Below are positions 42,061-43,109 of a stretch of DNA of 64,000 bases, one piece after another (the stretch's first letter is position 1; each line of letters starts with the position of its first letter). The notes below the pieces were generated by a model. The model had not been told where the DNA came from, did not search any database, and was given only the letters and a program-made list of their open reading frames with translations. Made by a program: the position numbers and the translations under genes. This stretch comes from Paecilomyces variotii. Taxonomy: Eukaryota. The DNA is taken from NCBI GenBank assembly GCA_004022145.1, contig RCNU01000001.1; one strand, 5' to 3'.

Positions 42061-43109
42061 ATGAAGTTCACTGGAATCGTTGCCTCTATGGCCGCTGCTG
42101 GCGTCGCTTCCTCGGCCGCCCTCCCCGTTGCGACCGTCGACGCGACCCTCAACCACGTCAACACCGTCCTCGCCAACGTTCAGGGTCTTGTCGGCCAGAC
42201 TCTGTCCTGTGCCACCGGCCAGGTTGACCTCAGCACCGTCCACTCCGACCTTGTTGCCGTCAAGTCTGAGCTCGTCAAGCTCGCCCCCGTTCAGAAGCGT
42301 GATGGCCTGACCACCCTTCCCGCCGATGTTCTTGGCAACGTTGCCGGCACTGTCCAGGGTGTTGCCCAGCCTATTGCCGGCCCTATCGTCAACAGTAAGT
42401 CTTGAATGAAACTCCAGAAGGAAGAACCCAGGCTCATTTGTATCTAGACGTTGGAGGCGCTCTCCCCGTCAAGCGTCAGCTCGGTCCTCTTGGCACCGTC
42501 GGCAGCGCCGTCAGCGACGTCGAGAACACCGTCGGTGGCCTCACCAGCCCCGTCGCTGGCCCTGTCCTTGACAGTAAGCATCCATGATTCCGCTACCGAG
42601 AGAATTTGAGTCGAATCTAACCCGACGTCCAGCCGTTGGCAACATTGCCCCTTCCCCCGCCAAGCGTGACGTTGTTGGCAGCACTGTCGGTGATGTTGCC
42701 GGCACTGTTGGCTCTGTCGCCAACCCTGTCCTCAGCCCTGTCCTCGACACTGTTGGCTCCGTTGCCCCCGTCAAGCGTGATGTCGTTGGCAGCACCGTCG
42801 GTGACGTTGCCGGCACTGTTGGCTCCGTTGCCAACCCTGTCCTCAGCCCTGTCCTTGACACCGTTGGCTCCGTTGCCCCTGTCAAGCGTGACCTCCAGAT
42901 CCTCAACTCTGCTGGTTCCGTTGTCAACACTGCTGAGATGACTGCTACCCAGCTCCTCCAGGGTCTCCAGTCCGGTAAGTTCATGGTTCCAGATAATAAA
43001 GGAAGCCATTGAACCGTTGAACTGACAATCAACAACAGGTGCTCTCCAGCTCCCCACTGAGGGCCTTCCCCTCGTCGGCAAGCTCCCCGTTGTTGGCGGC
43101 AGCAACTAA
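42061..43109 (+). CDS. Secreted Kex2-processed repeat protein (KEP), ~290 aa, 4 exons
   Basis: Signal peptide MKFTGIVASMAAAGVASSA. Exons 42061-42394, 42448-42573, 42633-42974 and 43039-43109 join in frame. Five KR sites separate related V/G/P-rich repeats. TATA-like TATATAA at 41921. Confidence 0.88.
42661..42893 (+). repeat. 111-bp coding tandem repeat (2 copies, 37 aa each)
   Basis: caagcgtga recurs at 42661, 42772 and 42883. The two units encode identical peptides and differ only at synonymous sites. Confidence 0.95.

Follow-up and report, generated by a model that had tools for sequence, protein, structure and literature searches.

The window analysed here is a 64,000-nucleotide stretch of contig RCNU01000001.1 from the Paecilomyces variotii assembly GCA_004022145.1, and the subject of this report is a four-exon gene on its plus strand, extending from an ATG at position 42061 to the end of a TAA stop codon at 43109. 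Removal of three GT..AG introns, all in phase 1, leaves a frame of 873 nt that encodes 290 amino acids. The predicted protein has a signal-like N-terminus and five Lys-Arg (KR) dipeptides, which bound four related units in the middle of the chain, between N- and C-terminal segments that are conserved in relatives. An earlier reading made from the letters alone (the sequence-only reading) had proposed a Kex2-processed repeat protein (KEP), the precursor of several secreted amphipathic peptides, and the architecture described below is consistent with a precursor of this kind.

Gene structure, transcription and selection

All parts of the gene lie on the plus strand. Exon 1 (42061–42394) comprises the start codon, the signal-like N-terminus (amino acids 1 to approximately 20), the conserved N-terminal helical segment (amino acids ~21–78), KR site 1 (amino acids 79–80, 42295–42300) and the first 31 residues of peptide 1. 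It is followed by intron 1 (42395–42447, 53 nt), which is modelled and has no spliced RNA contig. Exon 2 (42448–42573) holds the end of peptide 1, KR site 2 (amino acids 120–121) and most of peptide 2. Beyond intron 2 (42574–42632, 59 nt), exon 3 (42633–42974) is composed of the end of peptide 2 with KR site 3 (amino acids 164–165), peptide 3 with KR site 4 (42668–42778), peptide 4 with KR site 5 (42779–42889) and the first 28 residues of the C-terminal segment. Intron 3 (42975–43038, 64 nt) separates it from exon 4 (43039–43109), which encodes the final 23 residues of the C-terminal segment and the stop codon. On the unspliced strand, the ATG opens an open reading frame (ORF) of 114 amino acids, with its stop inside a segment led by GTAAGT.

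Intron 1 in repeat 1 and intron 2 in repeat 2 interrupt the unit at the same place and in the same phase (AGPIVN/NVGG and AGPVLD/TVGN, the slash marking the intron), which suggests that a repeat unit was duplicated, intron included. The corresponding place is uninterrupted in repeats 3 and 4. The position and phase of intron 3, within a Gly codon, are shared with a distant homologue from metagenome records (LQS-G-ALQLPT compared with LEQ-G-LITPTQ; about 3094–3184 of locus L001).

Twenty-four sequencing runs are listed for the stretch, of which 20 hold all or part of it. Eight of the 20 are recorded as RNA, all labelled as food or food-fermentation metatranscriptomes, and four RNA runs from three studies were aligned to the gene. 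Two contigs of run X11 confirm splicing, one of intron 2 (joint 42573>42633) and the other of intron 3 (joint 42973/4>43038/9), both with GT..AG ends. The 3′ untranslated region extends over 43110–43177; in run X14, 12 A residues form a loose end behind 43177, approximately 68 nt past the stop codon, which fixes the strand, and an X11 contig extends to 43187. The gene is transcribed, and is present in RNA libraries of three studies with spliced joints and a poly(A) end.

Contigs from two of the four runs (X6 and X7, both RNA-library runs) possess a different joint, 42685>42797, which lacks one repeat unit of 37 amino acids (111 nt, 42686–42796) and leaves the frame open, with 253 amino acids and four KR sites. 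These contigs keep the introns, diverge from the window by approximately 1% elsewhere and look genomic, that is, derived from DNA or from unspliced RNA. The in-frame loss of exactly one unit indicates that unit number varies between strains. The strains represented in the runs show six coding differences from the window, five synonymous and one Gly281Ser; intron 3 alone, with its 64 nt, shows four base changes and one deletion between strains.

The third codon position is C or T in 255 of 291 codons (0.88), compared with 0.49–0.60 in 13 other coding ORFs of the window, which bears out the strong bias towards C/T-ending codons that had been noted from the letters. The fraction is 0.83 in exon 1 and 0.83–0.92 in exons 2–4. 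Repeats 3 and 4 encode identical protein: 9 of 111 bases differ, all at synonymous third positions, with no replacement (32.3 synonymous sites, pS of 0.28; the chance that nine of nine random changes are synonymous is 1.5e-5). By this comparison of codons, the peptides are under purifying selection. Counts of AbaA, BrlA, CreA and StuA sites in the 1.5 kb upstream were too few to interpret.

KR sites and the protein family

The N-terminus is composed of Met-Lys, approximately 15 hydrophobic or small residues, further small residues and then Ala-Leu-Pro. The KR dipeptides, at amino acids 79, 120, 164, 201 and 238, delimit peptides of 39, 42, 35 and 35 residues (KR not counted), and a tail of 51 residues follows the last site; the coordinates and lengths given in the sequence-only reading match the spliced 290-residue model exactly. 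All five Arg residues of the protein are in KR, and none of 20,000 shuffles of the mature part gave five KR. That the four units are repeats is borne out by pairwise alignment z-scores of 6.0–20.5 and, for each of the six pairs, by a score that none of 500 shuffles reached. As had also been noted, the four repeats contain no aromatic residue and no Cys; the whole protein has a single Cys. The Kex2 motif is described as having Arg at P1, preferably Lys at P2, and an aliphatic residue or Pro at P4 (PMC8528282). The P4 residues of the five sites are Val, Pro, Pro, Pro and Pro, within this preference, and the peptides that follow start with DG, QL, DV, DV and DL, placing Asp or Gln at P1′.

A phmmer search with exon 1 against 1.84 billion representative sequences gave 24 matches at E ≤ 1e-3, the sole 100% match being a library protein (P0006) that is the 114-residue ORF itself. 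A profile built from ten full-length matches (A1) retrieved 33 proteins: 27 are named, all from Eurotiales (16 from Aspergillus, seven from Penicillium, three from Talaromyces and one from Rasamsonia), and six are unnamed. Nearest to the whole window protein are proteins of section Fumigati, with approximately 41–45% identity over exon 1. The automatic names among the 33 are 'hypothetical', 'Cell wall protein' (six proteins) and 'Hydrophobic surface bindi...' (seven proteins; a UniRef name). No Pfam cut-off was reached by any of 27 family proteins or by any of the three window exon translations. The protein, called undescribed in the sequence-only reading, is no orphan, since public relatives exist under automatic names.

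Exon 1 had no match among longer proteins in a word-indexed library, and the full 290-residue protein was absent from the matches of the library searches, in which only P0006 was present. A search of PDB sequences with profile A1 gave a best E of 0.017, with unrelated helical proteins. Family proteins compared with the window by tblastn showed no second copy outside 42061–42967. A metagenome scan yielded four loci (L001–L004) with one identical sequence, which represents one more distant member of the family; the loci are 100% identical over the 1 kb compared, each belongs to a different metagenome record, and one lies on a contig of 544 kb.

Alignments of the family (A1 and A2) reveal a common plan. 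A near-invariant, signal-like MKFTGI start, with M1, K2, F3 and G5 invariant in both alignments, is followed by a conserved N-segment of approximately 55 residues with two predicted helices, site 1, a Val/Gly/Thr/Ala-rich middle of variable length, site 2 and a conserved C-segment of approximately 45 residues with three predicted helices. Most relatives possess two sites only, around a single middle stretch. On these alignments, the window protein follows the aspergillus-type plan, its middle having been multiplied into four units bounded by KR, and its repeats represent a lineage-specific expansion. Each gene has two sites in most aspergilli, five in the window and as many as six in Penicillium, and strains may differ by a single unit.

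The sites are conserved across the family, and the case in which conservation of KR in orthologues fails, which the sequence-only reading had named as telling against processing, was not encountered. In 38 family proteins of at least 140 amino acids, 86 of 127 Arg residues are in KR, and P1′ is occupied by Asp in 45 of these 86 and by Gln in 35 (80 of 86 for the two together), so that KR[D/Q] dominates family-wide. Among 13 aligned homologues, site 1 is KR in ten, QR in two and absent in one (P0025); site 2 is KR in eight, QR in two and absent in two, and one protein is truncated there. Moreover, P0024 keeps four KRD sites around Asn/Gly-rich units, and in the Penicillium proteins P0048–P0055 four to six KR[QD] sites border two further units that alternate. 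The sites thus persist though the intervening sequence is unrelated.

A search with exon 3 among proteins of 199–2000 amino acids gave five matches, of which four are bacterial-looking and contain a FecR domain, and the fifth (P0003) is unnamed and unrelated in sequence. Two of the FecR-domain proteins (P0001 and P0005) end in tandem 15-residue units of the type STVGSV[VA]NPVLAPVA, with 50–56% identity to repeats 3–4 (window 42629–42928) over 56–85 residues. This likeness probably reflects convergence of Val/Pro/Gly repeats, though a near-identical stretch of 13 residues is striking.

Predicted products and competing explanations

After removal of KR, each of the six predicted products has a net charge of −2 to −3 and no aromatic residue, and basic residues remain only in the N- and C-terminal segments. 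Gly makes up 5–18% and Pro 4–12% of the six products (14–18% and 9–12%, respectively, in the four repeat peptides). The peptides have their largest hydrophobic moment at 95–100 degrees, with z-scores of 2.1–4.0 for five of the six products (at 100 degrees, 4.0, 2.6 and 2.1 for repeats 3, 2 and 1); the N-terminal segment, with a z-score of −0.25, is the sole product that lacks a helical period. At the strand-like angles of 160–180 degrees the z-scores of the repeats are at most 0.3, so that the periodicity is one of an amphipathic helix and not of an amphipathic strand. VLIM power peaks at 3.55–3.8 residues in all 15 middle regions of family proteins analysed, with z-scores of up to 17.6 at 11/3 residues in section Nigri proteins and of 7.1 at 3.6 residues in the window protein. 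The amphipathic Val/Leu spacing pointed out in the sequence-only reading is thus a property of the family. Section Nigri orthologues differ by exact 11-residue insertions or deletions (GVASPVVKTVG-type; alignment A2, columns ~147–190), which match the 11/3 hydrophobic period. Peptides that are disordered in water and become ordered only at an interface would be the natural reading of these properties.

We see an even chance that the gene, a member of a Eurotiales-restricted family that has no Pfam model, encodes a kexin-processed secreted polyprotein which releases anionic, interface-active peptides similar in function to the repellents of Ustilago. In such a pathway, the signal peptide would be removed, a Golgi kexin of the Kex2/KexB type would cut after each of the five KR sites, and KR would then be trimmed by a Kex1-type carboxypeptidase. 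This would give six products: an N-terminal helical segment of approximately 57 residues, four Val/Gly-rich peptides of 39, 42, 35 and 35 residues, and a C-terminal segment of 51 residues. The peptides would become ordered at hydrophobic–hydrophilic interfaces, either between the hyphal or conidial wall and air or on solid substrates, in a role like that of the Ustilago repellents, HsbA or hydrophobins, to which they would bear no relation. Use of the sites is suggested by the fact that KR holds two thirds of the Arg residues of the family, by the Asp or Gln that follows, by Val or Pro at P4, and by retention of the sites at unit borders through several independent expansions. The role is most likely physical rather than signalling, as the acidity, the lack of aromatic residues, the helical period, the fast change in unit number and the strong codon bias all favour bulk surface use over receptor signalling or lysis.

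Several observations weigh against a cut precursor of this kind. Only inspection and conservation support the signal peptide. Conservation is highest in the N- and C-segments and not in the middle that would be excised; alpha-factor-type precursors show the opposite, and a structural two-domain protein would fit this pattern. KR is missing altogether from P0025, the second site of P0016 lacks a dibasic motif, three section Fumigati orthologues (P0036, P0038 and P0040) show a gap at that site, and several members have QR or AR instead of KR, neither Gln nor Ala being among the P2 alternatives listed in PMC8528282. The Gly and Pro contents of the repeat peptides speak against stable helices, and in both AlphaFold models of homologues (P0015 and P0010) the middle region has a predicted local distance difference test score (pLDDT) below 50. 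Finally, the sole RNA contig over intron 1 (X11, unbroken over 41910–42573) keeps this intron while splicing intron 2, and no spliced intron 1 was seen among the RNA contigs of the four runs examined; retention as the main form would give a 114-residue product. Contigs drop minor forms, give no proportions and cannot rank expression.

Some of these points fit another explanation, possible though on balance unlikely, in which the protein stays intact or is only partly nicked and acts as a secreted binder of the wall or of hydrophobic surfaces. The N- and C-terminal helices would then be the working unit, possibly a distant HsbA/MP1-like bundle, with the middle as a flexible amphipathic linker, and the protein would tolerate its KR sites or use them just to trim this linker. 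It is the N- and C-segments that align between genera, the AlphaFold helices lie in the N and C parts (pLDDT of 50–68), and the absence of KR from P0025 and of the second site from the section Fumigati orthologues would cause no difficulty. The same holds for matches to amphipathic lipid-surface proteins, namely Perilipin (E of 0.18–4.1), REF (E of 0.014 and 0.11), Baculo_PEP_C and, in the search of PDB sequences, apolipophorin III (E of 0.63); all are below curated cut-offs and probably reflect composition. The names 'Hydrophobic surface bindi' on seven and 'Cell wall protein' on six of the 33 profile matches point in the same direction, but the HsbA-type names stand against a negative test for the HsbA family PF12296, which was found in none of 27 family proteins (13 searched at E ≤ 1 and 14 at E ≤ 10) and in none of the three window exon translations. 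By hidden Markov model, the protein thus lacks the match to a characterised wall-protein family that the sequence-only reading had regarded as damaging to its proposal, and the wall protein CcpA is excluded by its Cys residues. Nor did the PDB profile search contain an Mp1p chain at E ≤ 1. Furthermore, exposed KR sites in secretory proteins are normally cut, the near-confinement of Arg to KR[D/Q] (86 of 127) would be hard to explain if the sites were unused, and the unit expansions in the window, in P0024 and in Penicillium each keep their KR borders.

Structure comparison added little to this question. The AlphaFold models of P0015 (10 alignment rows) and P0010 (24 rows) have mean pLDDT values of 44.2 and 48.7 and predicted template modelling (pTM) scores of 0.30 and 0.33. 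With these low-confidence models, Foldseek found no PDB entry at E ≤ 0.001, the best being four-helix bundles at an E of 0.73. The best VIA-align match (Z of 12.3 and root mean square deviation (rmsd) of 4.0 over 114 aligned residues) was to generic helical bundles, below the level at which the tool is meaningful for helical models, and no Mp1p or HsbA-type chain was present among the 50 VIA-align matches listed for these poor models. Atlas scores for P0015 were 0.84, 0.80 and 0.77, all below the lead level of 0.9; the third belongs to a 'putative Cell wall galactomannoprotein' cluster, and the scores were counted as no evidence.

Cleavage might also release peptides that are bioactive rather than structural, either as a pheromone- or hormone-like signal or as antimicrobial or candidalysin-like lytic agents, an explanation that we consider doubtful. 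Many KEPs are reported to yield pheromones or effectors (PMC7329392, PMC6339444). In addition, the peptides are amphipathic, and strong purifying selection holds repeats 3 and 4 identical. However, lytic peptides are usually cationic, whereas the products predicted here are anionic and aromatic-free, and keep basic residues after trimming in the N and C segments only. The STE13 signature of alpha-factor-type KEPs, described as X-Ala or X-Pro dipeptides after KR (PMC6339444), is not seen in the five peptide starts given above. The middle is poorly conserved and changes in length by 11-residue steps between close species, which is unusual for a receptor ligand, and 35–57 residues would be long for a fungal pheromone.

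It is considerably less probable that intron 1 is regulated or usually retained and that the main product is the 114-residue form, composed of the signal, the N-segment, one KR and a single 34-residue peptide. The unbroken X11 contig, in which intron 2 is spliced, and the presence of the intron-1-retained frame in the library as P0006 agree with this explanation, as does the lack in intron 1 of a CTRAY-type branch consensus, which is seen by eye in introns 2 and 3. Codon bias, however, is as strong in exons 2–4 as in exon 1, divergence in exon 3 is synonymous only, splicing of introns 2 and 3 keeps the frame of the long model, relatives conserve both the C-terminal segment and the position of its intron, and the tendency of contigs to drop minor forms applies here too. 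Intron 1 itself is supported, at the level of sequence, by its GT..AG ends, by its parallel with intron 2, by the codon bias and selection downstream of it, and by the frame beyond it, which enters a repeat unit ending in PVKR as the other units do.

A precursor of a peptide that is ribosomally synthesised and then modified post-translationally (RiPP), of the ustiloxin/dikaritin type, with cyclised cores, is hardly credible: it would share with the window protein only the outline of a signal peptide and KR-separated repeats, and the repeats have no aromatic residue, the units are 35–42 residues long, and DUF3328 (PF11807), tyrosinase and methyltransferase had no match in the 116 of 169 window ORFs of at least 90 amino acids that were scanned. 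The Pfam scan comprised 98 ORFs at E ≤ 1e-4 and 18 ORFs at E ≤ 1e-3, out of 169 stop-to-stop ORFs; the remaining 53 are mostly other frames over scanned genes, and small exons could escape such a scan. Within this scope, the sequence-only reading was right that the window has no DUF3328 gene, and its judgement that the lack of a Tyr core makes a dikaritin unlikely is upheld.

Neighbouring genes with Pfam matches are mostly housekeeping or metabolic, and include a Cdc14-type phosphatase, Zn2Cys6 factors, Pcc1, glutathione peroxidase, translin, DIM1, a DUF676 esterase, HAD hydrolases, thymidylate synthase, an AMP-binding enzyme, alcohol dehydrogenase, an ABC transporter and an OPT transporter. 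The full-size ABC transporter (17611–21977, plus strand) and the OPT oligopeptide transporter (12274–14597, minus strand) lie 20–30 kb upstream, and no link to the peptide gene is suggested. Over approximately 5 kb immediately upstream (37000–42000), no ORF of at least 90 amino acids has a Pfam match, and the region may be a long promoter, a gap, or the site of small or intron-rich genes. An uninterrupted ORF of 673 amino acids at 52378–54396 on the minus strand matches no Pfam family at E ≤ 1e-3.

Comparison with known precursors and surface proteins

The KEP-type architecture proposed from the letters agrees with both operational definitions in use, the signal peptide being taken by inspection. 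That of Umemura is given as a signal peptide and at least three repeats of at least 8 amino acids between KR, KK, RK or RR, none exceeding 100 amino acids (PMC7329392), and the window protein has four related KR-bounded units of 39, 42, 35 and 35 residues. That of Le Marquer is given as at least four fragments after in-silico cleavage at KR or RR (PMC6339444), and the window protein yields six. Most family members, with two sites only, would fail the repeat filter. The class is large, with 7878 KEPs reported in 1461 genomes, which fall into 838 types and 2560 singletons (PMC7329392). Searching both KEP surveys' supplements for motifs gave no match, a result that is uninformative for the survey of Umemura, whose Table S2 consists of accessions without sequences. 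In the literature searched, no paper with any of six homologue locus tags was found, and none of the titles and abstracts listed on KEP peptidomics in Aspergillus or Penicillium concerned the family. The gene appears to be a new, uncharacterised member of a known and very large class, and its family appears to be unstudied.

To a specialist the architecture itself is unsurprising; the value of the finding lies in its reach into the main Aspergillus and Penicillium species and in a testable prediction of released peptides. The surface chemistry of moulds governs how they leave water, stick to solids, sporulate and are recognised by hosts, and in ascomycete moulds hydrophobins, together with a few small proteins, receive most of the credit for it. 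We suggest, tentatively and as the less likely outcome, that moulds of the Eurotiales, among them Aspergillus fumigatus, A. niger, A. oryzae and many species of Penicillium, may possess a counterpart of the basidiomycete repellents, in which kexin-released, anionic, aromatic-free Val/Gly peptides with an 11/3 period would coat hyphae or spores, or condition solid substrates, their unit number changing fast by duplication. If so, kexin cleavage would supply a second, peptide-based surface layer, easily overlooked by tryptic proteomics of full-length proteins, in moulds that serve food fermentation and enzyme production as well as in a major human pathogen. Surface-active peptides of this kind would be simple, Cys-free candidates for coatings and emulsifiers. 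Should the protein stay whole, the analysis would still provide an annotation for a family now labelled hypothetical.

The period of approximately 11/3 residues, the 11-residue steps in length and the predicted disorder away from a surface are features that the window protein and its relatives share with perilipin, apolipoproteins and rubber elongation factor. Proteins of the perilipin type, however, are intracellular or circulating and are not cut by kexin, and the polar face of the window peptides is composed of Gly, Ser, Thr and Asp rather than Lys and Glu.

Ece1 of Candida albicans is a secreted polyprotein that is cut at KR into several peptides, one of which is an amphipathic helix; this peptide, candidalysin, is cationic and lytic. 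The window peptides, by contrast, are anionic, contain much Gly and Pro and lack aromatic residues.

Two groups of Cys-containing surface proteins were considered and rejected. Hydrophobins require eight conserved Cys and CcpA, with 235 amino acids, is described as having six invariant Cys (PMC6168859), compared with one Cys in the whole window protein. HsbA of Aspergillus oryzae is a small, secreted protein that is not Cys-rich and adsorbs to hydrophobic solids (PMC9394342, PMC5328806). It is described as one protein of 14.4 kDa and not as a cut precursor, whereas the window protein is predicted to be cut. Dikaritin and ustiloxin precursors are described as having a short core with a conserved Tyr (PMC7329392), unlike the Tyr-free units of 35–42 residues found here.

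The closest parallel is with Rep1 of Ustilago maydis, which is reported to have a signal peptide and tandem units from which KEX2 cuts ten peptides of 34–53 residues plus a single larger piece; the amphipathic products stay with the wall of the hyphae, where they contribute to hydrophobicity and aerial growth (PMC3133707). No protein of Ustilago or of another basidiomycete was present among the exon-1, exon-3 and profile matches, and no direct comparison was made with the Rep1 sequence. The two precursors differ in several respects: the window protein has four repeats compared with 12 in Rep1 and possesses conserved helical segments at both ends, and its named relatives belong to Eurotiales only. 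Moreover, Rep1 peptides form amyloid. The period of the window peptides is helical (3.55–3.8 residues) and not strand-like. Among the analogues named in the sequence-only reading, a lytic role like that of candidalysin is less likely than the coating of an interface, given the anionic, Gly/Pro-rich peptides, and the surface-active, Rep1-like part of the proposal is the most likely one: with cleavage as predicted, the peptides would resemble those of Rep1 both in size (35–57 amino acids) and in amphipathic character.

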